The notes under the pieces were generated by a model that worked only from the letters and a program-made list of their open reading frames with translations, made no database searches and had not been told where the DNA came from. Below are positions 28,942 to 51,134 of a DNA stretch of 64,000 nucleotides, piece by piece (position 1 is the stretch's first letter; every line of letters starts with the position of its first letter). This DNA comes from Vulcanimicrobiota bacterium. Its GTDB lineage: Bacteria; Vulcanimicrobiota; Vulcanimicrobiia; Vulcanimicrobiales; Vulcanimicrobiaceae. The stretch lies in assembly GCA_963723515.1 (NCBI GenBank), contig CAVRQT010000002.1, forward strand, positions 704,001 to 768,000, read 5' to 3'. The translations under genes and the position numbers were made by a program.

Positions 28942-31352
28942 TTAGAAATTGAGCGTTCCCGGCACGATAGGGCCGTTGCGGGTGATTCCGAAGGTCGCCG
29001 CGCGCGATGGGAAGGCGAGAAGATCCAACGTCACGTTAACCATCTTGAGATTTTCGTTGTATTGCACGCGAACTTCGTAGCAATTCCCGATCACGATGTG
29101 GTAGTAGATGTTCTTGTTCGTCAGCCGGCCTTTGTTCTTCCAATCGATGTCGGTTAGGAATTGGATGTCGGCGTTGCGCCCAAACGGCGAGGCGATCCCC
29201 AGGTTCGTGATGCCGAATCCTTGACCGGGTCCAGGTGCGAACGAGCCGCCGAGAAGCAAGATCGAGCGCGGCGACGGTCGCGACGAAAGCTGATATTGAA
29301 CTGGCTGCGCTTGCCGGTTGAAGAGCGTCTGAAATGACAGCTGCAGATTGTAGAAGTCGCCGTTGAAGAAGCGCAGCACGTCGAATGCCGATTTTGAGTT
29401 TTCACTCGAAAGGATATCGAACTGCTGGAACGGGACCGCAATAGGCCCGTTGTTGTTCGCCTCGTTATAGGTAATCGAGTTGACGATGTGCCGGCCGACG
29501 GGCGTCTGCAGGGAGAGATTTTGCGTTACCGTCGCTTTGAGGTCGCCGGTCCCGTAGATAAATTGCTCGATCGTACTCGTGGCCGAGAGGTCGCTTCCGA
29601 ACAGCCGGTAGAGCGCCGGCCCGAGCGTCAACGACAGATCTTCGCGCGAGGTCAAAAAATACGGTGCGGGCTGCTCGTACCGGCCGACGTAAAACTGCGC
29701 GGCGATTGGAAACCAAAAATGCGGAAAGAGCGCGTTCGGCCGAATCGCCAGTTCAGGCATCTTGTCGATGCCGGTCGGCTGCGTTGCATTCGTCTTATCG
29801 AAGGTCAACTGGTAGTCCACCGCCGGCGTCGTCCAATGCGTCAGCGAATTGATGTGGCTGGTCGAGCTGTCCGAGGCGAATCCGCCGTATGCCGTTTGGC
29901 TCGTGTTGTAGCTCAACGTTAGACCTTGCGAGAGGCTCGTCGTCAACTGTCGCTGGTCGGTTAGGCCATAGTTCGTGACCGACGATTGCGAGCCGGTTGC
30001 CGAGCGGCTGTAATTATAATTTTGCTGCTCGCGCGGCGTCGCATGGACGACCGTTGCGGAATACTGCGTCGTCGGCGGCAAGTTCGTAAATGGTCCGTAG
30101 TTGCCGTTATAGTTGAAGACGAATTGCCCGCGCAGCGTCGGTGAGAAGTTTTCCGTTTCATTGGCGGTTAGGTTGTACTGCTGCGTGGACGTCTGGCGAT
30201 TGTGGATGCCATAATAATCGATGCTGGCCTGACGGCGTCCATTTCGCTTTGCAAAGAAACCGACGTATCCGAGGCCGAGCCCGACGCGCGTAAAGTATTC
30301 GAGCCGATAGTATCCATAGTAGTAGTTGCTATTGCCGAAGGCGAGCTTGAGTTTGACCCAAGCTCCTTCGTATGAATCGTAGCCGAATTCCGGAAAGAAG
30401 CCGGGGCGATGTAGCGCCTCCTCTTGCCGTAGCGGAATGACGACTTTCGGAAGATAGAGTATCGCCGCCGCTCCCAGATACAGCACCGCCTTGGTAATCG
30501 TTAGCCGATCGCCCGGGGTCACGTCGATCGTTCGACCGGTTAAATGATAACCGCCACGCGGATTTTCGCAGGTCGTTACGTACGCATAATCGCCGTGCGC
30601 GACGCCGCTGCTCGTTGAGGTCATCGTCTTCGCGGAGTAGTACACCTCGCCGCGCTCGACGTTGCGCGTGCTTTCGCCATGGCTGTTTTTAGCGTCGCGC
30701 TTCGTGTAACGGTGTCGAAGGCAATCTCATCGGCGCGCAAGATCGTATCTTGCTGGCGGTTGATGATGTAGGGATGGCCCGTGACCGTCACGGTGCGCTT
30801 ACCGTCATAGTGCGCGCGGTCGCCCGCGACCATGCCGTCTTGATAGTAGATCTGCACGTGGCCGATGATGTCGCCCGGCTGATTCTCGTTGACGTTGCCG
30901 ATGATCTGGTCGCCAAGGATGGCGATCTTGCCCGGCTCAAGCGTCGGTACGCCGGTCGGTGTCGGGGACGGCGAGGGCGTGGGCGAGCCTTTGGGCGTCA
31001 GCGGTTTCGGCGATCCGGTTGGACGGACCAAGAAAACCGGACCGCTGGTCGTCGCCTGTGGCGACGGAGTCGGAACCGGCAGTGGTGTAACCGGAGGCCC
31101 AGTCGGTTGCGGAGTCGCGTAGAGATGACCGCCGCCGGGCTGCCCCGGCGGGAAAGTGGGTGTCGCCTGCGGCGACGGCGACGCCACCTCGGGTGTCGGC
31201 AACGCTTGCGCGACCTGTTTCGTGCCGCAGGAGCGGCTCATCATCCCGAGCGCATCTTCGGATTGCGGATCGTTCGCGGCTAAAGTCTGTGCATTCGCAA
31301 AAACATTCCCGGCGATCGCGAGAATGCAGAGGAGCGCTCCGGCCGGCCGCAA
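28942..31352 (-). CDS. LptD/OstA-like outer-membrane assembly protein (frameshift in the A-run at 30686-30690)
   Basis: Signal peptide, PT-rich linker, jellyroll-like region, TTC...YHL...I...PGDRL, P.FGYDSYEG, beta-barrel ending in F; one extra A joins the two ORFs; downstream of lptF/G. Confidence 0.72.
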
Positions 31353-31363
31353 CGCCTTCTTAG

Positions 31364-32509
31364 TCAGCGCTCATTCCACCAGAGCATTGCGAGTCCAGCC
31401 AATCCGAAGATGATGTTCGGCATCCACGATGCCAGGTAGGGATTCATGACGCCGTTACGCCCGAAGGCAGCCGCTGCGGTGAGCAACAGATCATACATAC
31501 CAAACGCAACAATTGAGAGGGCGATTCCCAGCGTCCGCCCTTTTTTGCCGAATTTGATTGCCAGCGGAAGCGCGAGCAACACGGCGACGAAGCAGGCGAA
31601 TGGGAGTGCGCTCTTATTGGCAAGGTTGACCTGCATCGTCCCCAGCGCTGTACCGCCTACCCCCTGCGCTCGCAGAAAATGCACTTGTTGCGCGAGGGCT
31701 TTCGAGTTCATCGTAAAGGCATCGTTGTTCGTGCTGCTCATGAACGCCGCAGCCGTTTCGGCAAGCGGCAATCCGATCGAGACCGAGCTCGTTCGTGCTT
31801 GAGCTGCGAATTCTCCGTTTGCGTTGAAGCGTGTGTCGACGACGTCGTTGAGCAGAAGCGTTGCGCCTTCAACGTGGGCGGTCTTCGCCGAAAGGATCTC
31901 GTTGTAATAGCCACTGCGGCCGGGTTTGAACACCTGCACGCCGACCATCGTCTTGTTGTCCGGCATCACCTGCGCGACGTAAAAGACGTTCCCAGTATCC
32001 GGATCTTTGCGGAAGAACTGCGGTTCAACCGGCAATGCCGCCGTGTGATAAATGATCTGGTAGAAGCTGCGAGTCGAGATGTCCACGGAAGGCGGCGCGA
32101 TCAGCTCGTTCATCGCGTAGGCTACCCCAAACGCGCAGATCCCAAAGAGCAGCGGCGTCAAACAGATGCGCCACAGCGAGATGCCGGCGGTTCGCAACGC
32201 ATTGATCTCGTTGTCTGCGGAAAGGCGGCCAATCGCTAAAAGCGTTGCAAAGAGCGCCGCAAAGGGAAACGCAAGTGGAATGCTTTGCGGAATCCTAAAG
32301 AGCACGAACCGCAAAACTAAGAAAAACGGCGCGTGGGCGTTGATCAGAAAGTCGGCGGCCAGATAGAAGATATTGACGCCCCAAAACAACAGAAACGCGA
32401 AGAACGCAAAGCAGAATGGCCCGACGAACTCGCGCAACAGATACGAGTCCATCAACGGAATCCGGATCAAGGGGCGTGGAAGCGTAGCGGCGTGCGCGGC
32501 CGTCGCCAT
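31364..32509 (-). CDS. LptF/LptG family LPS export permease
   Basis: DSYLLREF, GRLSADNEINALRTAGISLWRI, NELIAP, LASWMPN. Confidence 0.92.
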   Translation of the reverse strand: MATAAHAATLPRPLIRIPLMDSYLLREFVGPFCFAFFAFLLFWGVNIFYLAADFLINAHAPFFLVLRFVLFRIPQSIPLAFPFAALFATLLAIGRLSADNEINALRTAGISLWRICLTPLLFGICAFGVAYAMNELIAPPSVDISTRSFYQIIYHTAALPVEPQFFRKDPDTGNVFYVAQVMPDNKTMVGVQVFKPGRSGYYNEILSAKTAHVEGATLLLNDVVDTRFNANGEFAAQARTSSVSIGLPLAETAAAFMSSTNNDAFTMNSKALAQQVHFLRAQGVGGTALGTMQVNLANKSALPFACFVAVLLALPLAIKFGKKGRTLGIALSIVAFGMYDLLLTAAAAFGRNGVMNPYLASWMPNIIFGLAGLAMLWWNER

Positions 32510-32523
32510 GAACTTAGTCTAGT

Positions 32524-33003
32524 CTAGTAGCTGCGGTAAGCGTTGAGCACGCGCGCAACGTAGGCGCGCGTTTCAGCATACGGCGGCACGCCGTGATAGC
32601 TGTCGACCGCCGCAGGGCCTGCGTTATATGCTGCCACCGCCAAGGTCACATTATTGCCGTACCGCGCCAGCAGATCGTGCAGATATCGCGTTCCTCCATC
32701 GACGTTGGCGCGCGGATCGAACGGATTCGCGACGCCGTAGGTGGCGGCGGTACCAGGCATCAATTGCATGAGACCTTGAGCGCCTGCGGGGCTGATTGCG
32801 CTCGGGTTGCCGCCCGACTCCGCCATGACGATAGCACTGGCCAAGGCCGGCGGTACGCTATTTCGGGCGGCGGCTTCGCCGACGATCGTTTGAAGCTCGA
32901 CGGGCGCAAGCGCGTGCGGAGCATAGGGCAAGTAACCCGCGTCACTGCAGCCATATAAGAAGGTAAGTAAAAGTGCTGCGTACGCAGACTTTCGGATCTT
33001 CAT
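32524..33003 (-). CDS. lytic transglycosylase (SLT domain) lipoprotein; start 33003 or 33012
   Basis: AESGGNP.A.S.AGAQGLMQLMPGT, AAYNAG, PPYAETRAYV. Confidence 0.9.
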   Translation of the reverse strand: MKIRKSAYAALLLTFLYGCSDAGYLPYAPHALAPVELQTIVGEAAARNSVPPALASAIVMAESGGNPSAISPAGAQGLMQLMPGTAATYGVANPFDPRANVDGGTRYLHDLLARYGNNVTLAVAAYNAGPAAVDSYHGVPPYAETRAYVARVLNAYRSY

Positions 33004-33120
33004 GCGCACCATAGGGACTGTGGATAGCCCCTTTACTCCCGACCCGCGTCGTCGCCCTGCGTAGAACGATAAGCCCTCGGCTCTAAAGGCCGCTTGCATC
33101 GCCCCTCGCAGGGGCGTATA

Positions 33121-33146
33121 GTGGAGCAAAGTGGTGCCTCGTGGTG
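33121..33146 (+). promoter_or_regulatory. MraZ-binding direct repeats
   Basis: GTGGAG-caaa-GTGGTG-cctc-GTGGTG at 10-nt periodicity just before the mraZ RBS. Confidence 0.8.
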
Positions 33147-33162
33147 TGCTGAGGAGGGCTTC

Positions 33163-33606
33163 ATGCACGCGGACTTGCCGCGTTTTTCGGGCTTCGTCGA
33201 GCATGCCCTTGACGACAAGGGCCGTCTCATCGTGCCCGCCCGCTTTCGCGAGCGCCTCGGAACCGGCTTCGTGCTGACGGTCGCCCCGCCCGATCCATGC
33301 CTAGCGCTCTACCCGCAGGGACAATGGGATATCTTCTGCAGCCGCTTGCAATCGGCGCCCCGCAAGGATGAGCAGTACCGCCGGATGGTCCGCCATCTTT
33401 TTTCGCACACGGAAGAAGTTGCATGCGATACGCAAGGCCGGCTCGTCATTCCGGCAACGCTGCGCTCGTACGCCGGCATCGAGCGCGATGTCGTCTCGAT
33501 TGGGTCGATGACCCGCATCGAGATTTGGGCGAAGGAGCGGTTCGCCGCGCATTCGGAGCCCAAGGGCGAGGTCGGCGATTTCATGGCTGAGCTGGGCCTC
33601 TACTAG
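33163..33606 (+). CDS. mraZ: division/cell wall cluster transcriptional repressor MraZ
   Basis: LDDKGRLIVPARFR and DTQGRLVIP; GAGGAGG RBS. Confidence 0.95.
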   Translation: MHADLPRFSGFVEHALDDKGRLIVPARFRERLGTGFVLTVAPPDPCLALYPQGQWDIFCSRLQSAPRKDEQYRRMVRHLFSHTEEVACDTQGRLVIPATLRSYAGIERDVVSIGSMTRIEIWAKERFAAHSEPKGEVGDFMAELGLY

Positions 33607-35113: not shown

Positions 35114-36890
35114 TTGCATCCGAGAACATTCACGCGCATCGGTCCGCTTCGTGCGAAGCTGATCTTTTACGGCGTCTTCGCGATCGCGCTCTTCCTGACG
35201 TGGCGGCTTTGCGATTTTCAGATCATTCAAGGGCCCGTGCTTGCCAAAGAGGCGCTCGAACAGCGTTCCAACACGATCGAAGTTTTCGCTCGGCGCGGCA
35301 ACATCTACGACAAGGACGGCAACGTTCTGGTCCGGTCGTTGCCCTCTGAAAGCATTTATGCTGTTCCCAGCCAGCTAAGCGATCCTGACGCAACCGCGCG
35401 AAAATTAAGCGCGATACTAGGAACCCTCGGACCGGCGGTGATTTCGGGCTTACACGATCGTCATTTACAGTTCACGTGGGTCGCGCGCAAAGTTTCGACG
35501 GACGTTGCGGCACGGGTGCGCGCTGCAAATCTGGAAGGGATCGATTTTAAAGCGGAGGATACCGGGCGCCGTTACGATACCGTTGGCCATCTCGCATCGA
35601 CGGTGCTTGGCTTTGTCGGCATCGACGAAAACGGGCTCGACGGCGTCGAATATCAATACGATTCACTCCTGCGCGGGGACACCGGACGCATCTCGCTTGA
35701 AACCGACCAGTTCAAACGCCCGATCCCCTTCGGCGACCAGATCGTGTTGCGGCCGGCGAAGCCCGGGTACAGTGTCGCCCTCACGATTGACTCGTATTTG
35801 CAGTACCAAACGGAGCGCGTGCTCGCCGAACAGGTCAAAGAATTTTCTGCGGAAAGCGGCAGTGCGCTGGTCATGGACCCATGGACCGGCGCAATTTTGG
35901 CGCTGGCCAACGTTCCCGACTACCAGCCGAACGATTTTTCACATGCGTCGCCGGATGCGCGGCGGGATCGGGCGGTCATGGATGCCTATGAGCCCGGCTC
36001 AACATTTAAGCTCGTGACGGCCGCCGCGGCGCTCGAAAGCGGCGCGGTGACGACCGAATCTCGGTTTCCCGCGCGCGACAGTTTGGAGATTGGCGGCCGC
36101 GTGCTGCATAACGCGGAAGATGGGTTCATGGCCGGAACCGGCGGCAGTGAAACGCTCGAGCAAATCATCGAATACTCCCACAATATCGGGGCCGCAGAAG
36201 TCGGCTTACGCATCGGCGCACATCGGCTTTACAACATGATCCGCAACGCGCAGTTCGGCGAGCCCACGCAAATTGGATTGCCTGGCGAAAACCCCGGCAT
36301 CGTGCCGGCGCTCAACGATTGGAGCTCCTCATCGTTACCCACAATCGCCTTTGGGCAAGGCGTCTCTGTGACACCGCTCGCGCTCGCGCGGTTTTACGCG
36401 GCAATTGCGAACGGCGGCGTCTTACTGCGTCCGCGGATTCTCTCGGCAATCTTCGACGAACATGGGAACGTGATCTATCGTTACGGTCGCGAGGTCGAAC
36501 ATCGCATCTTCTCGCGCCGGACCGCGGCGACGCTGCGCCGATTCTTGCGGTCGGTCGTCTTGCGCGGGCACTGGTGATCCGACCGCACAGATTCCGGGCT
36601 ACACCACGGCCGGAAAGACCGGGACGGCGCAAGTCGTTGAAAACGGCGATTATGCGCCCGGCGAGTACGTCGCGTCCTTTGTCGGAATGGTGCCGGCCGA
36701 ACATCCGCGGTACTTGATTCTTGTTAAAGTCACAAAACCGCGCGGCGCGATCTACGGGAGCGTCGTTGCGGCGCCAGGGTTTGCCAAGATCGCGATGATT
36801 GCAATGCTCCACGCGGGAGTATTGCCAAACGTGCCGTCGCCCTCGCCCGCGCCGGTTCGCTTGGTTCGCCGGGTCAAAAAGGCGAACTAG
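35114..36890 (+). CDS. ftsI: class B penicillin-binding protein FtsI (frameshift at GGG 36566-36568)
   Basis: RGNIYD, GLDGVEYQYD, EPGSTFK (SxxK), SHN; removing one G gives GTG...AGKTGTAQ. Confidence 0.92.
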
Positions 36891-36896
36891 CCCGCC

Positions 36897-38319
36897 GTGG
36901 CTTCAGCGGCACCATCATTTCCCGCGACAGAAATCGTGCGCGGCGCTTCCGCTTTGACGGTTGACTCTCGCAGCGCATCCGAGGGTGCAATCTTTGTGGC
37001 GATGCGCGGCACGCGTACGGACGGACATCGGTTCATCGACGACGCGATTGCGCGCGGTGCTCGCACGATCGTCATGGAGGAGCGCCGTGAATTGCCACCG
37101 GGCGTGCGCGGCTTCATCGTTGCGGATTCGTCGCAGGCCCTTGCGGAGCTCGCCAGCGCGTTTTACGGCGCGCCTGCGTCCGGACTGACGCTGATCGGCG
37201 TCACGGGAACGAACGGCAAGACCACAACCGCGCACATGATTGCATCGATCTTCAATGCGTCCGGAAAGTGCACCGGTGTCGTCGGTACGCTCGGCGCATC
37301 GTTGCCGAATTACCACCTGCCGCTCAAGAACACGACGCCGCTTGCGCATGAGCTGCACAAGACACTCGCCGATTTACGTCAACACGGCGCGCAAACGGTC
37401 GTCTTGGAAGTCAGTTCCCATGCGCTTGCGCTTGGGCGCGTTGCAGGCCTTCGGTTCGCCGTCGCGGCCTTGACGAACGTCACACGCGACCATCTCGACT
37501 TCCACGGCACATTTGAATCCTATGCGACGGCAAAGCGCGCGCTCTTCGGTGCATGCGAGCGCGCCGTCTTCAACGTTGACGATGAATGCGGAGCAGCGTG
37601 GGCCGGAAGCTTCGATGCGTCACGAACCCTGACATACTCGCTGCGCTCTCATGCTGATTTCGTCGCGGAAGATATTGCGTTGCGCAGCGACGGCTGCGGC
37701 TTCTCCGTCGATGGCATCCGGTTCGAAATTCCGATCGCCGGCCGATTCAACGTTGCCAATGCGCTCGCCGCAATAGCCGTAGCGCGCGCTTTGGATGTTC
37801 CACTCCCGTCCGCCGCACGGGGCTTGCGCGAATTGCATGCTGTGCGCGGGCGAATGGAAGCGCTTCAACCAAGTGGGCTGCAGGTCTTCATCGACTACGC
37901 GCACACGCCGGACGCACTTTCTGCCGCGCTCCGCTCGTTGCGCGAGCTCAGGCCGAAGAGGCTGACCGTGGTCTTCGGTTGCGGCGGTGATCGCGATCAG
38001 GGAAAGCGCGCGCAAATGGGCGCGATTGCGGCACAACTCGCAGATCACGTCATCGTGACGTCCGATAACCCTCGCAGCGAAGCGCCCGCCGCTATTGCCG
38101 ATGCCATCCTCACAGGGATCGGATGCCGCGAAACATGAGGTGATTTTGGATCGGCGTCAGGCGATAGAACGTGCCATTGAACGCGCAGACCTTAACGACA
38201 TCGTGCTCGTTGCGGGTAAGGGGCATGAAGCTTATCAGATCATCGGCGAGCGAGTCGTCCCGTTCGACGATCGGCAGATTGCTGCCGATGCGCTACGCCG
38301 CCGAAGTGACGGAACCTAA
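36897..38319 (+). CDS. murE: UDP-MurNAc-tripeptide synthetase (frameshift near 38120-38125)
   Basis: GVTGTNGKTT, EVSSH, TRDHLDFH, DYAHTPD, DNPR (meso-DAP type); C-terminus AGKGHE in the next frame. Confidence 0.94.
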
Positions 38320-39695
38320 TGTCGCTCAGCTTCGCGGAAGCGGTTGACGCAGTGAATGCAAAGCCGCCGGCAAAACGCAATGGTCCTTCCCAAGTCGTCG
38401 TCTCCACGGATACGCGTACCATTCATACCGGAGAGACGTTCTTAGCGCTTCGTGGCGAGCGGTTTGACGGTCATCAGTTTGTCGACGCTGCACTGCAGCG
38501 CGGTGCGGCCGCGTTGATCGTTGAAGAGCCGCCAAAGGAGTCGCACGGCGTTCCCGTTCTCGTTGTCGACGACACACTATCGGCTTATATGAAGCTGGCG
38601 GCTGTCGCCCGCGCGAAGTTGCGCGCCACGATCGTTGCGATCACCGGCAGCAATGGAAAGACGACGACGAAGGCGCTCTTAGGCCAGTTGCTGCAGCGAA
38701 ATTTTGGCAACGCGATTGCCGTTTCGCCGTCGAACGAAAACAATGAGATCGGCGTCAGCAGGTTGTTCTTGAACGCGCCGATTGATGCGCGCGTCATCGT
38801 TGTCGAAATGGGGGCGCGGCATTATGGCGACATCGCGACGCTGGTCAACATCGCGCGGCCCGATATCGGTGTCTTGACGAACGTGCGTGAAGCACATCTC
38901 GAAATCATGCAGACGCCGGAACGATTAGCGCAAACAAAGTGGGCGCTGTTTTCAACCGGCGCGCGTGCGGTACTCAACGCGGGCGATGGAGTGTCGCGGG
39001 AGCGCGCCGCTACACTTGAGCGCCCACCGCGATGGTTCGGCGCCGGAAATATTGCGTGGCCTCAGATGCACAAAGGAGAATCGGGCGTCTTTTTCGTTGA
39101 TCGGCAGACGCTTCGACTCGTCGAAGGCGGTCGTGAAACGACGTACGAGGTGAATGTGAATCTGCCGGGCGACTACAACTTAGAGAATCTCGCCGCAGCG
39201 ACTGCGGCCGCGCTGGAAGTGGGTTGCGAACCGCAATCTCTCCTGGGACAACTTGCGCAGCTCACGTTGCCGGCTGGCCGCTACGAGACGATTTGCATTC
39301 CGAATCGTCCCCGAATCATCTTCGATGCGTATAATGCGTCGCTAAGCGCAATGATGGCGACGCTTGATGCTTTCGCGAAGGAAAATGCGCGCCTGAAGAT
39401 TGCGGTCTTAGGAAGTATGGCCGAATTGGGGGATGCGTCGGCGGAATTTCACCGGCAAGCCGGCGCGCATGCCGCAACGGCGGGCATCGGCTACCTCCTA
39501 GTAGGTGGAGAGAATGCCGGCGATCTGCGACGCGGCGCCCAAAGCGCGGGTTTTAGCGCGGATCGCATCATCGAATTTAAAACGAATGGTGAAGCGGCGC
39601 AGTGGATTGGCGAGCATGCGACTCCAAGCGATGTCGTCTTCCTCAAAGGATCTCGCCGCTACAAACTTGAGGAGATCATCGAGGCGTTGCGTTAG
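38319..39695 (+). CDS. murF: UDP-MurNAc-pentapeptide synthetase
   Basis: TDTR, GERFDGH, TGSNGKTTTK, NNEIG, DAYNA, KGSR. Confidence 0.95.
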   Translation: MSLSFAEAVDAVNAKPPAKRNGPSQVVVSTDTRTIHTGETFLALRGERFDGHQFVDAALQRGAAALIVEEPPKESHGVPVLVVDDTLSAYMKLAAVARAKLRATIVAITGSNGKTTTKALLGQLLQRNFGNAIAVSPSNENNEIGVSRLFLNAPIDARVIVVEMGARHYGDIATLVNIARPDIGVLTNVREAHLEIMQTPERLAQTKWALFSTGARAVLNAGDGVSRERAATLERPPRWFGAGNIAWPQMHKGESGVFFVDRQTLRLVEGGRETTYEVNVNLPGDYNLENLAAATAAALEVGCEPQSLLGQLAQLTLPAGRYETICIPNRPRIIFDAYNASLSAMMATLDAFAKENARLKIAVLGSMAELGDASAEFHRQAGAHAATAGIGYLLVGGENAGDLRRGAQSAGFSADRIIEFKTNGEAAQWIGEHATPSDVVFLKGSRRYKLEEIIEALR

Positions 39696-40403
39696 GTGAG
39701 CCGCCCGCTCGTGCTTGAAAGGCCGCAAAGGTTGCAGGGCGTCGTTGCGATTCCCGTGCGCACGCGGGTCGTTCAGCCGGGCGATGATTTCTTGACGACC
39801 GTTGCGGATGCGGTACGTGGAATCGCTGTAGCGGGCGACGTCGTGGCCGTCTCTGAAACTGCGCTCGCCATCGCGCAAGGCCAGACGCTGCCGGCGCAGG
39901 CGGTGCGTCCATCGAACCTCGCGCACTTCATCTGCCGCTACGCCGCACCGCTGGCGACGGTGAATCAGCCGGAGTCGCTGCAAATCGTCATCGATCGCGT
40001 TGGGGCGCCCAAAGTCGTTTTGGCATGCGTCGCGCAAGTGCTGGGCCGGCTCGTTGGGCAGCGCGGACTTTTCTATCGCGTTATGGGACCCGCGCTTACC
40101 GCCATCGACGGATATACCGGCACGATGCCGCCGTTCGACCGCGTGATCGTCTTTGAACCCCACGAGCCCGATGCATTTGCGCAATCGTTTTTCGAACGTA
40201 CCGGCATCGACTGCGCGATCGCCGACGCAAACGACCTCACACCGGCAAAGCTCTTGGGTGCTTCGCGCGATGTAGCGCGCGAGGTTGTCGCTCGTGCACT
40301 CGATGAAAATCCACACGGTAATTCGGACGAGCAAACGCCGATTGTCGTACTGAAGTGGCGGGGCGAGGGAGCCAGTCCGCTACGCGTGAGCGAGACGGCG
40401 TGA
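39696..40403 (+). CDS. CofE-like (coenzyme F420-0:L-glutamate ligase family) protein
   Basis: PVRTRVVQPGDD, DVVAVSETALAIAQG, IDG, ADANDL, NPHGNSDEQTPIVVL resemble the F420-ligase family; abuts murF and overlaps mraY. Confidence 0.75.
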   Translation: MSRPLVLERPQRLQGVVAIPVRTRVVQPGDDFLTTVADAVRGIAVAGDVVAVSETALAIAQGQTLPAQAVRPSNLAHFICRYAAPLATVNQPESLQIVIDRVGAPKVVLACVAQVLGRLVGQRGLFYRVMGPALTAIDGYTGTMPPFDRVIVFEPHEPDAFAQSFFERTGIDCAIADANDLTPAKLLGASRDVAREVVARALDENPHGNSDEQTPIVVLKWRGEGASPLRVSETA

Positions 40404-41377
40404 GCTGGTCGAGCATACTGTTGGCCGTTGCGTTCGGCTTTGCGATCACATTGGCGGCAGGTGCGCTGCTGTTGCGTTTGCTGCCTCGGTTCCAACTGCG
40501 ACAGACTGCGTATGAAGATGCGCCGCGAACGCATCAAAGCAAGACTGGGACGCCGACGATGGGCGGCCTTGCAATTCTCGCGGCGATGATCCCGCCGTTG
40601 ATTCTGTTCGCGTCGAGTGATCGTCTCGGCGAGGCGCTCGTATTGCTCGTCTTCGCTTGCGCCGCAATCGGCTGTCTCGATGATTATCTCGGGACGCGTA
40701 AAGGAAAGGCGCGCGGCCTTCGCGCGCGCACGAAGTACCTTGCTACGGCACTTGCGGCGGTCATTTTCTTACGGTACGTTTCGGCCGTGCTGCCTCACAC
40801 CGGCAGCGCCTATCCGCTCTTTTCAGCGGGCACGCTGACCCTGAACGCACCGCTTTGGTTGTGGCTCACGCTTGGCACGCTCGCCATCACGGGCACGATT
40901 CACGCCGTTAACCTGACGGATGGGCTCGATGGTTTAGCGGCGGGCGCGATCGTCGCGCCGCTCGCTGCAACGTTCGCGATTGCGGTTTCTTTCCACGAGT
41001 TCACCGCAACGGGCTGGCCGCTCTTGCTGTTGCTTGCCATCGGCGCCTGTCTCGGATTCCTCGTATATAACTACCATCCGGCCAAGATGTTCATGGGCGA
41101 CACGGGGTCGCTAGCGCTCGGTGCGCTGCTCGCCGGGGCTGCGATCTTGAGCGGCGAGATGCTCATGCTGATCCTTATCGGCGGCGTCTTCGTCGCTGAA
41201 GCGCTTTCGGTCATCCTGCAAGTGGCGTATTTCAAGTTGACGCACCGCCGAATCTTTCGGATGAGCCCGCTTCATCATCACTTTGAGCTTGGCGGATTGA
41301 ACGAACCAATCGTCACGCTTCGCTTTTGGACAGCCTCGATCGTCTGCTCACTTGTCGGATGGGCAGTCGTTCGATGA
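40400..41377 (+). CDS. mraY: phospho-N-acetylmuramoyl-pentapeptide transferase
   Basis: KTGTPTMGG, DDY, VNLTDGLDGL, FMGDTGS, PLHHHFE. Confidence 0.97.
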   Translation: MSWSSILLAVAFGFAITLAAGALLLRLLPRFQLRQTAYEDAPRTHQSKTGTPTMGGLAILAAMIPPLILFASSDRLGEALVLLVFACAAIGCLDDYLGTRKGKARGLRARTKYLATALAAVIFLRYVSAVLPHTGSAYPLFSAGTLTLNAPLWLWLTLGTLAITGTIHAVNLTDGLDGLAAGAIVAPLAATFAIAVSFHEFTATGWPLLLLLAIGACLGFLVYNYHPAKMFMGDTGSLALGALLAGAAILSGEMLMLILIGGVFVAEALSVILQVAYFKLTHRRIFRMSPLHHHFELGGLNEPIVTLRFWTASIVCSLVGWAVVR

Positions 41378-42741
41378 ACGCCGTGTTGGTGATTGGAGCG
41401 GGCCGCACGGGACAGGCCTGCGCGGAAATTTTGGGTGCTCGCGGCGTGCGCGTCTTCGTGACCGATGAAGAAGCCCCGAAAAAATTGGAGCGCGCAATCG
41501 CCACAATTCGCTCCGCGGGCGCCGAATTTGTTCCAGCCCAACAGGTTCAGGCGTTGCTGCCGGAGGTCCACCGTGCGGTTCTCTCACCGGGCGTTCCGCT
41601 GCAGGGTGCGTTCGCGCAACGTATCGCTGCCAGCGTGCCTGTTGTAAGCGAAATCGAACTCGCGTACGAGTTGTCCAAGGCGCCGATCATCGCCGTGACG
41701 GGAACGAAGGGAAAATCGACCACGACGGCGCTGATTGCGCACCTTTTGCGGTGCGCCGGCAATTCGGTTCGCGTCGGCGGCAACATCGGGAATCCGCTCG
41801 TGCGCGAAGCCTCCGCTGCGACGAGCGGCGACTGGCTCGTTGCTGAAGTTTCCTCGTTCCAATTGGAGACGATCCGAGCGTTCAAGCCTCGCATCGCCGT
41901 CCTGCTGAACATTTCCGACGATCACTTGGACCGCTATCCGTCGCTTGAAGACTACGCACGCGCGAAATATCGGGTCTTTGAGAACCAAGACGCGGACGAC
42001 GTCTTCGTCGGGAATCGTGATGATACGCGCGCTGCCGGCGCAGCGCAAACCATTCGGGCGAAACAACTCTGGTTCACGATGCGAAGCCCGGCTTCCGATG
42101 CCGCTGCCTTCGTGCGAGATCAGGCGCTGTGGTATCGGCCCCTAAAGGCGCCGCCGGAACGCATAATCGACCGCTCGGACATCGCATTGCCAGGCGAGCA
42201 CAATCTGCAAAATGTCTTAGCGGCAATGCTGGTGGCGGTTGCTTCAGGTGCTACTCCGCAATCCATCCGGGAAAGCATACCGTCGTTCGAACCGATGGAG
42301 CACCGCCTCGAAACGATCGGTGAAATCGGCGGCGTGCGGTACGTTGACGACTCCAAAGCGACAAACCCCGCCGCTGTTATCGCGGCGCTTAGCGCGTTCA
42401 AATCTCCCATCGTGTTGATTGCTGGAGGCAAATCGAAAGGCGCGGATCTTTCGGAGCTTGGCCAGATGATCCGCAAGCGCGTCAAGGCGCTCATTCTGCT
42501 TGGCGAATCCGCCGATACGCTGGCGCGGGCGAGCAGCCCGACGCCGTCGACATGCGCTTCGACGATCGAAGAAGCTGTTCAGCTCGCGCGTGAGCGTGCA
42601 GTCGCCGATGACGTCGTGTTGCTTTCACCTGCTGCGGCTTCATTTGACATGTTCGCTTCCGCTGAAGAGCGCGGCGATCGCTTCGCCGCGGCGGTCCGTA
42701 ATCTCGAACGTGAAGGCATGCGGGAAACGGCCGATGCGTAG
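41374..42741 (+). CDS. murD: UDP-MurNAc-L-Ala--D-Glu ligase
   Basis: SPGVP, TGTKGKSTTT, EVSSFQLE, DHLDRY, DDSKATN, LLSPAAASFD. Confidence 0.96.
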   Translation: MNAVLVIGAGRTGQACAEILGARGVRVFVTDEEAPKKLERAIATIRSAGAEFVPAQQVQALLPEVHRAVLSPGVPLQGAFAQRIAASVPVVSEIELAYELSKAPIIAVTGTKGKSTTTALIAHLLRCAGNSVRVGGNIGNPLVREASAATSGDWLVAEVSSFQLETIRAFKPRIAVLLNISDDHLDRYPSLEDYARAKYRVFENQDADDVFVGNRDDTRAAGAAQTIRAKQLWFTMRSPASDAAAFVRDQALWYRPLKAPPERIIDRSDIALPGEHNLQNVLAAMLVAVASGATPQSIRESIPSFEPMEHRLETIGEIGGVRYVDDSKATNPAAVIAALSAFKSPIVLIAGGKSKGADLSELGQMIRKRVKALILLGESADTLARASSPTPSTCASTIEEAVQLARERAVADDVVLLSPAAASFDMFASAEERGDRFAAAVRNLEREGMRETADA

Positions 42742-43888
42742 CGCCGCGGCGCTCGAAGATCGGCGCTCGCCGGCGATCCGTTCCTTCATTACTGCGCCCC
42801 CTGACGCGGTGTTGATCTCATCGATCGCGATCTTGGTCGGCATCGGACTCGTGATGATCTTCAGCGCTTCAAGCGCGCTCGCGTTCGCCGTTCATCATGA
42901 CGCGACGTACTACCTCAAACGCCAGGCTCTCTGGCTCGCAGTCGCGCTCGCTTTGGCATATGCGGCTTACCGTCTCGACTACAACAAACTGAAGGCAGTC
43001 TCGCCGTTGCTCTTCATTTTGAGCGTCATCAGTTTGCTCGCCGTGCTCGTTCCGCATGTCGGCATCGTTGTCAATACGTCACGGCGCTGGCTGGGTGCCG
43101 GCTCGCTTGCGGTGCAGCCTTCTGAATTTGCGAAGCTTGCGCTCGTACTGTTCTTGGCGGCGAAACTGAGCTCGCGCGGCGAGCGCATTACGTCGCTCGT
43201 GCGCGGTGTCGGGCCGCTTTGCATCGCCATCGCGATTGTCGTCATGCTGGTGCTCAAAGAGCCGGATATGGGAACGGCCAGCTTGCTCGCAATCGTCGCG
43301 TTCACGATGCTCTTTGCCGCCGGCGCGCGGATCGATCATCTGATCCTGATTTTGGTCTCGACGGTGCCCATCGTCGCCCTGGAACTACTGGCCGATCCAT
43401 ACAAGCGTGCGCGCGCGCTTGCGTTCTTGAATCCGTGGAAGGATCCGCAGAATACCGGCTTCCACATCGTGCAGTCACTGCTTGCGCTCGGCAGCGGCGG
43501 CATCTTCGGCGTGGGTCTAGGCGCTTCGCGCGCCAAGTTTTTCTATTTGCCCGAGCAGTACACGGATTTCATTTACGCCGTTCTGGGCGAGGAGCTGGGG
43601 TTGATCGGCGCCGTCGGTGTCATTCTGCTCTTCATCATCTTCGCGCATCGCGCAATTCGGATTGCACTCAGTGCTCCCGATCGCTTCGGATTCTTTCTCA
43701 CGATCGGCTGCACCGCGTTGATCGTTTTCCAAGCGCTGCTCAACATTGGAGTCGTTACATCGTCATGGCCCGTCACCGGAGTTCCGTTGCCGTTCATCTC
43801 GTTCGGCGGCAGTTCGCTGGTGGTGTGTCTCGTCGCGGTCGCGCTCATTCTGAACGTCGGACGAGCGCGCCGCGTCGGCGCGCGGTGA
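42734..43888 (+). CDS. ftsW: SEDS family peptidoglycan polymerase FtsW
   Basis: QPSEFAK, EPDMGT, LPEQYTDFI, GEELG, TGVPLPFISFGGSS. Confidence 0.95.
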   Translation: MRSAAALEDRRSPAIRSFITAPPDAVLISSIAILVGIGLVMIFSASSALAFAVHHDATYYLKRQALWLAVALALAYAAYRLDYNKLKAVSPLLFILSVISLLAVLVPHVGIVVNTSRRWLGAGSLAVQPSEFAKLALVLFLAAKLSSRGERITSLVRGVGPLCIAIAIVVMLVLKEPDMGTASLLAIVAFTMLFAAGARIDHLILILVSTVPIVALELLADPYKRARALAFLNPWKDPQNTGFHIVQSLLALGSGGIFGVGLGASRAKFFYLPEQYTDFIYAVLGEELGLIGAVGVILLFIIFAHRAIRIALSAPDRFGFFLTIGCTALIVFQALLNIGVVTSSWPVTGVPLPFISFGGSSLVVCLVAVALILNVGRARRVGAR

Positions 43889-45006
43889 GGGTGACGTTTG
43901 CCGGCGGCGGTACGGGCGGACACCTCTATCCGGCAATCGCGATCGCCGACGCCCTCGCGGAAAAAGGAAAGTTACGCGCGCAGCCGGTTGACATAGGATT
44001 TTTCGGCGCCCGAGATCGTCTTGAAGCGCAAATCGTGCCGGCGGCCGGCTACAAATTGCACTTCGTGCCCTCATCACCGCTTGGAAAGCGTAGACCGCTC
44101 GATTTTGTATCCGCAGCGTTGCTCAATGGCGCCGGCACTTTCGCAGCGATTGCACTATTGCTCAAAGAGCGGCCGGTTCTCGTGGTTGCGACCGGAGGAT
44201 ACGTTTGCTTCCCGGTTGTGATGGCGGCGCGTCTCTTACGCACGTTGCGACTGCTTGCAAGCCCCATCGTTCTTTTGGAAATCAACGTGCGGCCGGGTCT
44301 CACGAATCGCACGCTGGCGCCGGCCGTCGATGAAGTTTGGGGCGCCTTCGACGATGAGCCACGCGAATTTGCCGGCCGATATCATGTGACCGGTGTGCCG
44401 GTGCGCGCGTCATTGCGGCAGTTGCCGCAGCGCGACTCGGCAGCACGACGTCTCGGTTTGGATCCGCTGAAGCGTACGTTGCTTGTCATGGGCGGCAGTC
44501 AAGGTGCGCGCTCGATCAATGACGCGCTGTTGGGGTTGCTCGCAAGTGAAGGCGTGCCGAGTGGATGGCAGGTGCTGCACCTTACGGGTGAAGCCGACTT
44601 TCGGCGCGTCGCAACCGCGTATCAAACACTTTCCGTAGCCGCAAAGACGATTGCGTTCCTAGCGGATCCGGCAGATGCGTATGCGTGCGCGGACCTCGTG
44701 CTAGCGCGCGCGGGGGCGGCGACGCTTGCCGAACTCGCAGCCGTAGGCTTGCCCGCGATCCTCGTTCCCTATCCGCACGCGAGCGAGGATCACCAGCGGA
44801 TCAATGCGCGACGCTTTGAGTCCGCAGGAGCGGCGAAAATCATCGAAGACCGTGCTTTGGATGGCGGCACGTTGCATCAAACCTTGACGAGCGTTCTCGA
44901 TCCGACGAGCTTGGAGCGGATGGCGCAAGCGGCCAGGCGGCTGAGCAAGCCCGACGCGTTAGATGCGATACTGGGTCGCGTTCACGAACTCACGGGTGCG
45001 CTTTGA
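43885..45006 (+). CDS. murG: lipid II GlcNAc transferase
   Basis: GGGTGGHLYP, TGGYV, GGSQGA, RAGA.T.AE, HQ..NA. Confidence 0.96.
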   Translation: MRVTFAGGGTGGHLYPAIAIADALAEKGKLRAQPVDIGFFGARDRLEAQIVPAAGYKLHFVPSSPLGKRRPLDFVSAALLNGAGTFAAIALLLKERPVLVVATGGYVCFPVVMAARLLRTLRLLASPIVLLEINVRPGLTNRTLAPAVDEVWGAFDDEPREFAGRYHVTGVPVRASLRQLPQRDSAARRLGLDPLKRTLLVMGGSQGARSINDALLGLLASEGVPSGWQVLHLTGEADFRRVATAYQTLSVAAKTIAFLADPADAYACADLVLARAGAATLAELAAVGLPAILVPYPHASEDHQRINARRFESAGAAKIIEDRALDGGTLHQTLTSVLDPTSLERMAQAARRLSKPDALDAILGRVHELTGAL

Positions 45007-45028
45007 AGGCAGTCCGAAGAAGGCGCGC

Positions 45029-46408
45029 GTGAAAGGGGCGCTTCACTTCGTCGGAATCGGTGGTATCGGTATGAGCGCTATCGCGCGTATTCTGATGACG
45101 CGCGGCGACCGCATCAGCGGCTCCGATCTCCACGAGAGCCATCTCACGGAGCAATTACGTGGCGATGGCGCACACATCACGATCGGACACCGTGCGCGAA
45201 ACGTTGACGGGGCGCGCGCCGTCGTCATTAGTTCCGCGATTGGGCCGACGAATTGCGAATTTGTTGCCGCGAGCGAACGCGGGCTTGCGATCTACCGGCG
45301 TGGCGAAATGCTGGCACAACTGATGCGCGGTCGCCGCGGCATCGCAGTCGCGGGAACGCATGGCAAAACGACGACCACGGCGATGATTGCGTCGATCCTG
45401 AGCGGCGCGGGCCTCGATCCAACGGTGCTCATCGGTGGTGAAGCGATCGAGTGGGGCAGCAATGCACGCGATGGAAGCGGCGATTGGTTTCTTACGGAAG
45501 CCGATGAGTCGGACGGCTCGTTCATGGAGCTCGTTCCGGAAGTTGCGCTCGTCACAAATATTGAGAACGACCACATCGCCAGCGATGAAGAGCTGCCGCG
45601 CCTGCGCAGCGCTTTCGCCGGCTTCCTGCGTCGTTTGCCGGCGAACGGCGTGGCCGTTATCGGTGTCGATAATCCGGAAAGCGCGGCGCTCGCACGGTTG
45701 TCTCGCGTGGCACGAACGTTGACGTTCGGTTTATCGGAGCGCGCCGACATCCATGCGAAGAACGTGCGATACGAGCGCTTCGGATCGGCCTTCGATGCCG
45801 TGGCGGGCAAGAAGCGGATCGGCAGCGTGCAGTTGCGCGTTCCGGGAGAGATCAACATCTTGAACGCTCTGGGTGCGATCGCGATCGCGCAAACGCTCGA
45901 TGTTCCCATCTCCAAGACTGCCGCCGCGCTTTCTCGTTTTTCCGGCGTGCGCCGGCGTTTCGAGGTTCTCGCGCGCACGCCAAAGCTCACCATTGTCGAT
46001 GACTACGCGCACCACCCTACGGAGGTCAAGGCGACGATCGCGGCGGCACGCGCCTACCACCACGGGGAGCTGATCGTCGCATTCCAGCCGCATCGTTATA
46101 CGCGCACCGCGTACCTAGCGCATGATTTTGCGGATGCGCTCCGTGGAGCGCAGGCCGTTTTTCTCGTGCCGGTTTATGCCGCTTCCGAAATGCCGATTGA
46201 CGGGGTGAGCGAACGGTCGATCGGCGAACCGCTGCGGGCCGACGGCGCCGAAGTGCATTACGTTTTGGATCTCGACCAACTTCCACAGCGCATTTTAGAG
46301 CGTGCGTCACCCGGTTCGCTGGTGTTGATGCTTGGCGCGGGTGATATCACCGAGTATGCTGCAATGCTTGCCGGGCAGCTTCAAGAACGCACGCCGGTCA
46401 TCGCGTAG
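45029..46408 (+). CDS. murC: UDP-MurNAc--L-alanine ligase
   Basis: HFVGIGGIGMS, GTHGKTTTT, EADESDGSF, DDYAHHPTE, FQPHRYTR. Confidence 0.97.
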   Translation: MKGALHFVGIGGIGMSAIARILMTRGDRISGSDLHESHLTEQLRGDGAHITIGHRARNVDGARAVVISSAIGPTNCEFVAASERGLAIYRRGEMLAQLMRGRRGIAVAGTHGKTTTTAMIASILSGAGLDPTVLIGGEAIEWGSNARDGSGDWFLTEADESDGSFMELVPEVALVTNIENDHIASDEELPRLRSAFAGFLRRLPANGVAVIGVDNPESAALARLSRVARTLTFGLSERADIHAKNVRYERFGSAFDAVAGKKRIGSVQLRVPGEINILNALGAIAIAQTLDVPISKTAAALSRFSGVRRRFEVLARTPKLTIVDDYAHHPTEVKATIAAARAYHHGELIVAFQPHRYTRTAYLAHDFADALRGAQAVFLVPVYAASEMPIDGVSERSIGEPLRADGAEVHYVLDLDQLPQRILERASPGSLVLMLGAGDITEYAAMLAGQLQERTPVIA

Positions 46409-47358
46409 TGGCGATCGTGATGCAGCGCAGCCTGCTCTCCGATCGCGATCGCTCAGAACTTCGTGCTGTTTGCGGTGATTTCGTACGCTTCGATGAGCCG
46501 CTTGCGCCATACACGTCGTGGAAGATCGGCGGCCCTGCCGACGCGTGGATTCTCTGCGAGAGTGAAGCGCAAGTTGCGGAGGTGATGCGTTTCTGTCTGC
46601 GCCGCCGTCTGCCGTGGTTTGTTTTAGGCAGCGGTTCGAATCTGTTGATCGGTGATGGTGGCATTCGTGGCCTCGCCTTGCGTCTGGCAGGCGATTTTCT
46701 CTCGATCGACGCCGCCGCAACAGACGATGAAGTGGTCGTTGAAGCCGGTGCATCGGCTACGATGGCATTAATGACGGCAAAAGCCGCCTCGCACGGCGCG
46801 ATCGGCATCGACTCGCTCGTCGGCATTCCCGGAACGGTCGGCGGATCGCTGCGAATGAACGCCGGCACCGATCGTGAGATCGGCGAATTCGTCCGCAACG
46901 TTTGGGTGCAGTCGGTCTCGAAGCCGGAGCCGAGCGGCGTCAGCGTGCAGTATTACTATCGCCACACGTCGCTCGCCCGGGACGCAATCGTTTCGCGCGT
47001 GACGCTCGCATTTGAGCGCGGCGATCCCAAAGTCGTGCGTGAACAAGCGCAACGCCGGCTCGTACGCCGCAAAGAGACGCAGCCGATCGCCTTACCCAAC
47101 GCCGGATCGTGTTTTCGCAACCCACCCGATGATAAAGCGGCGCGGCTCATTGAAGCCGTCGGTGCGAAAGGCTGGCGTGAAGGCAATGCAGAGGTCTCGC
47201 CGCTACACGCCAACTTCATCAACAATCTCGGGGGTGCGCGCGCAAGTGACGTCGCGTCACTTTTGACGCGCGTGCGCCGCGCGGTGCACGAGCGGTTCGG
47301 AGTCGAGCTTCAGCTCGAGGTGCACCTCGTCGGAGTTTTTACGGCCGAAGATGGCTAG
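46408..47358 (+). CDS. murB: UDP-N-acetylenolpyruvoylglucosamine reductase
   Basis: IGGPAD, LGSGSNLL, GIPGTVGG..MNAG, AGSCFRNP, HANF. Confidence 0.95.
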   Translation: MAIVMQRSLLSDRDRSELRAVCGDFVRFDEPLAPYTSWKIGGPADAWILCESEAQVAEVMRFCLRRRLPWFVLGSGSNLLIGDGGIRGLALRLAGDFLSIDAAATDDEVVVEAGASATMALMTAKAASHGAIGIDSLVGIPGTVGGSLRMNAGTDREIGEFVRNVWVQSVSKPEPSGVSVQYYYRHTSLARDAIVSRVTLAFERGDPKVVREQAQRRLVRRKETQPIALPNAGSCFRNPPDDKAARLIEAVGAKGWREGNAEVSPLHANFINNLGGARASDVASLLTRVRRAVHERFGVELQLEVHLVGVFTAEDG

Positions 47359-48292
47359 CCGTCCCAAAGTCGCCGTCGTCATGGGGGGACCGAGCTGGGA
47401 GCGCGAGATTTCAATCGCATCCGGTTCGGAAGTGATGCGCGCGTTGCAGAACCTCGGTTACGAAGCCAAATCGCTCGATTACGATGCGCGCTTCGTCGAT
47501 GCGATCCGTAAGCTGGCGCCCGATGTCGTCTTCAACGCGTTACATGGGCCCGGCGGCGAAGACGGCCAGATTCAGGCCGTGCTCGACTGGCTTGGGATCC
47601 CGTATACGGGCAGCGCGATGCAAGCCGCGGCGGTTTCGATCGACAAACATCTGACGAAAAAATTGCTTGCCGCCGAAGGTCTGCCAACGCCCGTTTGGGA
47701 TCTCTTCGATCTTTCCGGCGGCACATTGCCGCTCTTACCGGGCGCCCTCAATTTGCCGCTGGTGGTCAAGCCGCGCTATGAGGGTTCAAGCGCCGGCGTT
47801 TCAATCGTGCGTTCGCACGAGCAGTGGAGCGCCGCAATGATCGATACCGCAAAAGAATTCGCTCAGGTGATTGCTGAGGAATTTGTGGGCGGACGGGAGT
47901 TTTCGTGCGGTGTCTTGGGTGAGGAAGCTTTGCCGGTTGCCGAAATCATTCCGACCCAAGACGAATTTTACAATTTCAACGCCAAATACCGGCCCGGAGC
48001 AAGCCGCCACCTGATCCCGGCGCCGATTGACGACGATCTTGCCTCGCGTTTGCAGATGCTCGCGCTTTCCGTGCATCGCATGATTGGGCTGCGGGACTAC
48101 TCCCGAACCGATTTCATCGTGACCGATGAAGGGCGACCTTATATCCTCGAAACGAATGCGCTTCCCGGCTTCACGCCGACGAGCATCATCCCTGATGAAT
48201 GCCGCATGATCGGCATGTCGTTCGAAATGCTGGTCGAGCGATTGATCGAGTTCGCGATGCAGCGCACCGAAGCGCAAGCCGTCGCCGGCTAG
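47351..48292 (+). CDS. ddl: D-alanine--D-alanine ligase
   Basis: GGPSWEREIS, LHGPGGEDG, KP..EGSS.G, E.N.LPG.T. Confidence 0.95.
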   Translation: MASRPKVAVVMGGPSWEREISIASGSEVMRALQNLGYEAKSLDYDARFVDAIRKLAPDVVFNALHGPGGEDGQIQAVLDWLGIPYTGSAMQAAAVSIDKHLTKKLLAAEGLPTPVWDLFDLSGGTLPLLPGALNLPLVVKPRYEGSSAGVSIVRSHEQWSAAMIDTAKEFAQVIAEEFVGGREFSCGVLGEEALPVAEIIPTQDEFYNFNAKYRPGASRHLIPAPIDDDLASRLQMLALSVHRMIGLRDYSRTDFIVTDEGRPYILETNALPGFTPTSIIPDECRMIGMSFEMLVERLIEFAMQRTEAQAVAG

Positions 48293-48658: not shown

Positions 48659-49090
48659 TCAGCGTCGCACGTTAGGAAACATCTCCGCGTCGTCTGCTTC
48701 TAACACATCCACAAGATAATGTAGCTCCGGCCTACGCTCGACGACCGGATAGCGTTTCGCGAAGGCCTCGCGATCGGCGACGTCATCGAGTGAGCGTTTC
48801 GTAATGTAAGACGTGAAGTCGGCGTAGGCGGAAGTGTTTGCATTCTGGCGCAGCCATGCGACGACGTCGTCCTCGGTTTCGGCTTTTGAGACGGCATCAC
48901 GAAGTTTGTCTTCCGTAACGCCGATCGCATCGAGCATTCGCTGGCTGAACCCTTGGATGCGATACGGTCCGAGATTGCCGCCGGGCAAGGTCGCGCGAAT
49001 TTTGTCGATCGTGCGCGGCAACATCGCGAGTCCGTCGAGTTGCAGTTTCGGGCTGCGTGGCGGTCCTTGCGAAAGATCTAACGGTTGCAT
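48659..49090 (-). CDS. DUF5069-like hypothetical protein
   Basis: DL...PPRSP...LDGLAMLPRTIDKIRA...G.LG.Y; ends LEADD. Confidence 0.75.
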   Translation of the reverse strand: MQPLDLSQGPPRSPKLQLDGLAMLPRTIDKIRATLPGGNLGPYRIQGFSQRMLDAIGVTEDKLRDAVSKAETEDDVVAWLRQNANTSAYADFTSYITKRSLDDVADREAFAKRYPVVERRPELHYLVDVLEADDAEMFPNVRR

Positions 49091-49205
49091 TCAGCGGCCC
49101 TTTCCCGAGAATTTCGGAGCGCAACAAGCGCTGAATACTAATGAAAGAACGACCCGGAGGCGGCCTGCATGGAAAACGCCTCTAAGCCGGAAAGGTGGCC
49201 TTCCC

Positions 49206-50396: not shown

Positions 50397-50400
50397 GTCG

Positions 50401-51120: not shown

Positions 51121-51134
51121 CAGGGACTACATCG

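Follow-up and report, generated by a model that had tools for sequence, protein, structure and literature searches.

CofE, the glutamate ligase of F420 synthesis, works through an acyl-phosphate, like MurD (PMC10861534; PMC8498797), and its R234 is the arginine that stacks against the F420 ring (PMC10861534). The origin of the enzyme has been called unclear (PMC8498797).

In the walls of Negativicutes the α-carboxylate of D-Glu bears cadaverine or putrescine, a modification required by OmpM (PMC10628300; bioRxiv 2021.05.31.446380; PMC12826042). Peptidoglycan modified with diamines in this way anchors the Negativicute outer membrane and has a place in ideas about the diderm-monoderm transition. 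The D-Glu of Cyanophora receives N-acetylputrescine (PMC9434261), in a membrane-bound step that proceeds better on lipid II (cited in PMC3266927). Cyanobacterial walls are reported as amidated rather than polyaminated, with no residue assigned, and PBP-A prefers D-iGln (PMC11189452). The moss UDP-pentapeptide is of the ordinary DAP type and unmodified, with a later modification predicted (PMC9434261). Among photosynthetic eukaryotes, the full peptidoglycan pathway is kept in Micromonas pusilla, mosses and some prasinophyte classes, and not in M. commoda, Ostreococcus or Arabidopsis (PMC4815162; PMC10784329). No gene that attaches the diamine is named in the accessible portions of PMC12632261, PMC5491611 and PMC12803152; the third of these places qimC, a CofE-like gene, in a wall-modification operon.

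The window analysed here, 64,000 nucleotides from a Vulcanimicrobiota genome (G000; assembly 2.1 Mb, 88% complete), holds an uncharacterised CofE-like gene, called X, inside the dcw cluster (Table 1). The murF stop codon (TAG, 39693-39695) is followed on the next base, 39696, by the GTG start of X; the translated frame is intact with no internal stops, and the TGA of X shares the four bases GTGA at 40400 with the GTG of mraY. The sequence-only reading had described this double coupling correctly, as it had the DNPR motif for DAP, which is seen in the translation of murE. Apparent frameshifts in ftsI and murE (window positions 36500-36900 and 38050-38320) leave X unaffected, and the one near 38130 in murE is probably an assembly indel. 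Genes split by apparent frameshifts in this assembly comprise ftsI, murE, a PF01933 gene (G000:C3:857561-858417), an arginase-family gene (G000:C2:500930-501762) and an aminotransferase (L224:10694-11795), and in each case an assembly error (indel) is more probable than a pseudogene. Recognised by eye beyond the cluster are, upstream of mraZ (28942-33204, minus strand), genes resembling LptD, LptF/G and a lytic transglycosylase and, downstream (48659-52592), genes resembling citrate synthase, hisA and alanine racemase.

Table 1. Features of the window around gene X (positions within the 64,000-nucleotide stretch).
Feature	Position	Strand	Basis and remarks
gene X	39696..40403	+	amide-bond ligase with the CofE fold, 235 aa, uncharacterised family; candidate amine ligase for the D-iGlu α-carboxyl of peptidoglycan
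murF	38319..39695	+	Mur ligase domains by Pfam; stop abuts the start of X
mraY	40400..41377	+	Glycos_transf_4 by Pfam; GTG start overlaps the stop of X
murE	36897..38318	+	DNPR (meso-DAP) motif; frame shift near 38130; end coordinate approximate
murD-ftsW-murG-murC-murB-ddl (remaining dcw operon)	41374..48292	+	ddl by Pfam; others by eye (translations, conserved order)
X residues 104-124, hydrophobic helix with basic flanks	40005..40067	+	family-wide; candidate membrane-docking element
DUF5069 gene	48659-49090		Pfam

The CofE-like fold attributed to X is borne out by both profile and structure. Pfam F420_ligase (PF01996) matches residues 21-101 only, at 36.3 bits against a cut-off of 25. An AF2 model built on a 32-sequence alignment (pLDDT 89.9) has Archaeoglobus fulgidus CofE (PDB 2PHN) as its sole structural match in Foldseek (E 4e-10), and superposes on it in VIA with a Z of 13.8 and an rmsd of 3.2 over 180 residues, the next structure scoring a Z of 4.0. 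Identity to CofE is 19-23%; a single-sequence search of the PDB with X gives no match, a profile search finds CofE over the first 70 columns only, and profile alignment with true CofE sequences of the same phylum reaches a probability of 98%. The ESM Atlas returned only clusters of the PF01996 type.

Over 175 family sequences, T23, D138, D177, N179, N205, P206, G208 and P215 are nearly or fully invariant. Judged by motif position against CofE, D138 and D177 are probably the metal ligands. The CofE lysine motif reads S-E-T-x-x-A-I in X, with K replaced by I and H/Q by an invariant E, so GTP dependence, which the sequence-only reading had given for the CofE family, cannot be assumed and X may use another nucleotide. 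In the model, a helix of residues 104-119 takes the place of the CofE beta-hairpin region; every group keeps it hydrophobic and basic, with a net charge of +3 to +4, and residues 104-124 are a candidate membrane-docking element. Hydrophobicity of the helix (residues 103-124) was tried as a discriminator and does not separate the families by itself, at 1.5-2.3 for X against 1.2-1.9 for the best window anywhere in CofE. The structural alignment of X ends at chain residue 226, short of CofE R234, and the C-terminus after the last motif has a family median of 9-19 residues, whereas it is about 29 residues long in five of the six bacterial CofEs compared.

Placement was surveyed in a set of 151 phylum genomes, 82 of the window's class and 69 others (the unpublished G128 and G505 being single rows each, on which none of the conclusions rests). 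X is a single-copy core gene, found in 149 of the 151 and in 120/120 of high quality. Within the class, 50 loci were sampled from the 82 matching genomes, the 30 best-scoring and 20 picked for distance, and the order murF-X-mraY is kept in all 50. The start codon of X lies -10 to +1 nt from the murF stop in 44 of the 47 unfused loci, mraY starts -10 to +1 nt from the stop of X in 49/50, and the remaining three loci carry an in-frame MurF-X fusion; such a fusion also occurs in part of a sister family. Twenty-two longer homologues include 20 MurF-X proteins and one X-MraY. Because order, start and stop spacing and fusions recur across the 50 class loci, the coupling of X to murF and mraY is not due to chance. 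In the other classes of the phylum X lies outside the dcw cluster (20/20 loci), and at the N-terminus its product carries a hydrophobic segment plus a domain, about 170 aa long, that has no Pfam match. An unannotated protein of 480-580 aa, also without a Pfam match, is often divergently transcribed from X in those classes (12 loci in one cluster; e.g. L070:2678-4408).

The same N-terminal domain recurs as a partner of X elsewhere. It spans about 170-180 aa, starts with a hydrophobic segment and has a conserved R-x-D-x-Y (e.g. L104:896-1441 and the N-terminal parts of L059-L078, P0360 and P0137). In cyanobacteria and plants, as in the other classes of the phylum, it forms one protein with X; a profile search of G000 found none. 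X occurs in 100 of 101 genomes of Negativicutes, the class of S. ruminantium S137, Selenomonas ruminantium included, and MurT_C and cofD are each found in 0/101; the named loci include none labelled Veillonella. In 69 of 80 named Negativicute loci the partner domain is a separate gene adjoining X, related to the fused domain with profile E-values down to 1e-29. The genes murI, partner and X are contiguous in 9 of 12 further Negativicute loci, and of the 80 named ones, many of which are short, 21 have murI no more than 4 kb from X. Hydantoinase/oxoprolinase and histone-deacetylase-family genes also lie near X in 14-15 of 80 Negativicute and 5 of 60 Bacillota loci (e.g. L079:8561-10249, L083:7915-9234, L174, L202-L205, L249-L251, L253). 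The histone-deacetylase family includes acetylpolyamine hydrolases.

In cyanobacterial-type metagenome loci, a GNAT gene lies directly downstream of X in five of nine, the other four being too short or without one, and is followed by ruvX and, where the contig extends far enough, mltG. MurT_C is absent from the Synechococcus elongatus control genome. Named eukaryotic orthologues are found in Marchantia, Riccia, Calypogeia, Ceratodon, Sphagnum, Diphasiastrum, Adiantum, Ceratopteris, Cryptomeria, Closterium, Klebsormidium, the JGI algal sets Mesen1, Chlat1 and Mesvir1, Micromonas pusilla CCMP1545, Pycnococcus, Pseudoscourfieldia, Chloropicon and Tetraselmis. Leaving the status of Tetraselmis aside, these named plants and algae belong to lineages with plastid peptidoglycan genes, as far as the accessible text of PMC4815162 describes them. 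No named angiosperm is among the 120 matches listed (8000 candidates scored; many rows nameless), and no glaucophyte among the named matches listed. A published co-distribution screen in plants, in its accessible part, omits the X family; it filtered out families in fewer than eight species (PMC4815162).

In Bacillota, a sample of 251 genomes gave 92 with a strong X match (99 minus seven weak partial matches), and 40 loci were taken from 54 places at E ≤1e-80 (eight others were Negativicutes and six were left out), four of the 40 being picked for a nearby murT. An arginine, lysine or ornithine decarboxylase lies within 4 kb of X in 21 of the 40. Two non-homologous families are represented, eight PLP-dependent OKR decarboxylases and 13 pyruvoyl-dependent arginine decarboxylases (TIGR00286); the loci are spread over about five subclades and are not 21 independent events. 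The PLP-dependent genes often overlap or abut X, with a SpoVB/MurJ-like gene following in three cases. An amidase is fused to or near X in 31 of the 40 loci, and a SpoVB/MurJ-like gene occurs in eight. No decarboxylase lies within 4 kb of X in 20 divergent-subfamily, 80 named Negativicute or 20 other-class loci, and none in the window's operon. Mutual exclusion of X and MurT, considered as a general rule, holds for the window's phylum (MurT_C in 0/151 genomes) and for Negativicutes and breaks across Bacillota, where 28 of 251 genomes, counted by hand, have both against about 31 expected if the two were independent. Bacillota also contain two more groups of long CofE-like proteins, of about 520 aa and 390-440 aa (L244:2358-3899, L245-L247; L241-L243, L248), whose matches to the core profile are confined to short stretches, as though the domain were interrupted by large insertions.

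A family tree of 48 rows, not rooted with true CofE (about 20% identity), places the plant sequences with cyanobacteria (support 100/99) and gathers a divergent subfamily into one clade (99/92) that leaves the window's group outside. The window's group is monophyletic (100/100) on a long branch whose neighbour placement reaches only 60/32; a topology that unites it with the orthologues of the other classes passes the AU test without rejection (p 0.35). All 21 of its sequences compared score higher with the main-clade profile than with the divergent one (average 232 against 202 bits), and the group has N209 and T/S55 as in the main clade, but G139 against that clade's invariant D. That the window's gene shares the function of the Negativicute gene is therefore plausible. 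Some divergent members are fused to AsnB-type amidotransferases (P0207, P0250, P0261, P0268) or TPR repeats (P0132, P0143), and these may serve a different wall chemistry.

Conserved dcw placement, the MurF and MraY fusions, the CofE fold and the lack of an F420 pathway make a peptidoglycan-precursor ligase likely, and that X performs some ligation to such a precursor can be held with good confidence. This upholds the core of the sequence-only reading, which had proposed a precursor ligase or modifier; substrate and stage are what we infer beyond it. Of the targets suggested there, a residue added to meso-DAP or to D-Glu, the wider family context favours an amine, a diamine, on the D-Glu α-carboxyl over an amino acid on meso-DAP, and the step, set there between pentapeptide synthesis and lipid I, possibly falls at the lipid-linked stage instead. 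The narrower claim that the window's own enzyme joins a diamine to D-Glu of the wall precursor is a reasonable one, a little short of probable.

In the proposed mechanism, X would act in the cytoplasm, probably docked on the membrane, as an amide ligase of peptidoglycan synthesis that needs metal and an NTP. If it works as CofE does, it would phosphorylate the free α-carboxyl of the stem D-iso-glutamate with NTP and two metal ions, on UDP-MurNAc-pentapeptide or, more likely, on lipid I/II at the inner membrane face. A diamine formed by decarboxylation of an amino acid (agmatine, putrescine, cadaverine or an N-acetyl form) would then attack the acyl-phosphate, giving D-iGlu-NH-R, the modification of Negativicutes and cyanelles. 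X might in this way do the job of MurT/GatD with an unrelated fold and a diamine in place of ammonia. Most relatives have the membrane-anchored partner domain; the window's class, in which none is detectable, couples X to MurF and MraY instead, perhaps in compensation.

The source of the amine in the window's phylum could be an OKR-family decarboxylase, present in 148 of 151 genomes; G000 also has an arginase/agmatinase-family gene. The G000 decarboxylase lies near tmk, the YaaO position, and is of the ancestral form (G000:C2:165430-166905; L224:7428-8909). AAT-fold decarboxylases of this form that lie near tmk or occur in cyanobacteria are not necessarily polyamine producers, and one decarboxylase clade in cyanobacteria and plastid-bearing eukaryotes is of unknown function, according to the accessible part of PMC8503589. 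The purpose of the modification in this phylum would probably be charge neutralisation or substrate marking. Outer-membrane anchoring is unlikely there because csaB is present: tethering was weighed as a purpose and is weakened by the gene's occurrence in 145 of 151 genomes. In G000, at 88% completeness, csaB was not found, possibly through incompleteness. The same genome encodes two SLH-domain proteins, one of them porin-like (L227:6553-8385, L225:14000-14878).

The main doubts about the diamine proposal are the unplaced branch of the window's group, the changed motif and the co-occurrence with MurT in Bacillota; a further one is that neither the window's phylum nor Negativicutes show a decarboxylase linked to X. 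Also unfavourable are the missing partner domain in G000, the tmk-side position of its decarboxylase, the amidated rather than polyaminated walls reported for cyanobacteria, the unmodified UDP-pentapeptide of moss, the lack of a glaucophyte among the named matches listed, the silence of the plant co-distribution screen on this family and the presence of csaB. The Selenomonas diamine transferase is ATP-dependent, and CofE uses GTP. This difference in nucleotide counts against the diamine proposal.

Alternatively, the window's enzyme might form a wall-precursor amide with ammonia or another small amine, or amidate the meso-DAP carboxyl instead of D-Glu. The changed active-site motif of its clade would fit, a different site would suit the 28 Bacillota with both X and MurT, and cyanobacteria have amidated walls and a PBP preferring D-iGln (PMC11189452) alongside the lack of MurT_C in Synechococcus elongatus. 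AsnB/GATase domains are fused to X in six of 52 longer homologues, but these fusions belong to the divergent subfamily and not to the window's clade; no glutaminase is linked in the operon, and the decarboxylase neighbours of Bacillota indicate a larger amine, which leaves this explanation unlikely.

CofE ligates L-glutamate by a MurD-like mechanism (PMC10861534), and X might have kept the amino-acid nucleophile and add an amino acid such as glutamate to the stem peptide or to meso-DAP. Fusion to MurF is compatible with such a role, and adjacency to murI in Negativicutes could make free D-Glu a substrate. The walls of Negativicutes are nonetheless described with diamines on D-Glu, the moss UDP-pentapeptide is of the ordinary DAP type (PMC9434261), and the recurrent decarboxylase linkage would be left unexplained; addition of an amino acid is accordingly rated as quite unlikely.

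Comparably doubtful is an action of X elsewhere in the envelope, whether on wall peptides being recycled, on a secondary wall polymer or on a lipid, with the dcw position serving co-regulation only. X is frequently fused or adjacent to cytoplasmic-looking amidases, is fused once each to PlsY, an M20 peptidase and a polysaccharide deacetylase, and stands outside dcw in all other-class loci sampled; qimC lies in a teichoic-acid-like operon of Streptococcus pyogenes (PMC12803152). A ligase of such substrates does not account for the in-frame fusions to MurF and MraY, the linkage to murI, or the retention of X in plastid lineages that keep peptidoglycan genes.

X is not an F420 or folate ligase: glutamylation of a cofactor (F420-0 or folate), in the manner of CofE or the chlamydial folate ligase, agrees with the fold, the Pfam family and the public annotation as coenzyme F420-0:L-glutamate ligase, but is highly improbable given that X scores 20.3 bits with TIGR01916 (cut-off 180.65, against 265.6 for a true CofE from the same phylum), that TIGR04132 leaves it unmatched at E up to 1, that its alignment does not cover the C-terminal part with the ring-stacking arginine, that cofC, cofD and cofG have no match above cut-off in G000 (88% complete) and cofD and cofE are each found in 0/82 class genomes, and that folC is present in G000 and in 40 of 41 class genomes. 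Elsewhere in the phylum, cofD occurs in 38 of 69 non-class genomes, and all 38 carry a separate cofE above cut-off besides X, so the CofE job is done there by another gene. The findings named in the sequence-only reading as refuting it, as far as they were open to computation, all failed to tell against it: relatives in the class share the placement, and no F420 pathway was found in the class. The PF01933 gene of G000 was considered as a cofD and is negative with TIGR01819; it is presumably a YvcK/GlmR homologue. Genes for cofD and true cofE, often adjacent, occur in families f6 and f18-f21 (G058:C20:42613-44800, L261 and 37 other genomes), which suggests from gene content F420 synthesis in part of Eremiobacterota.

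Returning to the diamine proposal, a broader and still more tentative form makes X an ancient Terrabacterial peptidoglycan amine ligase that amidates the D-Glu α-carboxyl by a second route, independent of MurT, with diamines in Negativicutes and many spore-forming Bacillota and an acetylated diamine or related amine in cyanobacteria (where the GNAT gene adjoins), inherited by plastids. X is one candidate family for diamine attachment in Negativicutes, wall amidation in cyanobacteria and the modification predicted for moss plastid peptidoglycan, none of which has an enzyme assigned in the literature covered. Were the broader form true, polyaminated walls would be far more widespread than Negativicutes and cyanelles, X would add a so far overlooked gene to the set for plastid peptidoglycan, and the CofE fold would gain a role in wall synthesis, correcting a widespread "F420 ligase" annotation and hinting at the origin of CofE. 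The candidate is testable in tractable organisms: Veillonella parvula, Synechococcus/Synechocystis, Marchantia and Physcomitrium. No paper assigning the X family or naming a diamine-transferase gene was found in the literature covered, most of it open-access. Both the CofE fold and the wall modification are known; joining the two is new within that literature.

Compared with the closest described systems, X shares with CofE and FbiB's N-terminal domain (PF01996, TIGR01916; 2PHN, 7ULD) the fold, the N-terminal motif, the invariant aspartates and a presumed acyl-phosphate chemistry. It differs from CofE in its low identity, its changed lysine motif, the basic hydrophobic helix in place of the hairpin region, a shorter C-terminus, a TIGR01916 score far below cut-off and the lack of an F420 pathway in its class. 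The chlamydial CofE-like folate gamma-glutamate ligase (TIGR04132) is a precedent for use of the fold outside F420 synthesis, as proposed for X, although X is unmatched by that profile and folC is present beside it. MurT/GatD resembles the proposed X in its site, the D-iGlu α-carboxyl, and in driving amide formation on a wall precursor with NTP, but has a Mur ligase and glutaminase fold and an ammonia donor; its signature of Mur ligase domain, MurT_C domain and glutaminase partner is lacking in X. The diamine-transferring activities of Selenomonas and Veillonella and the N-acetylputrescine-transferring activity of Cyanophora, which the available papers describe without a gene and with which X is hypothetically identical, belong to the membrane stage, work better on lipid II (PMC3266927) and yield the product that is proposed for X.
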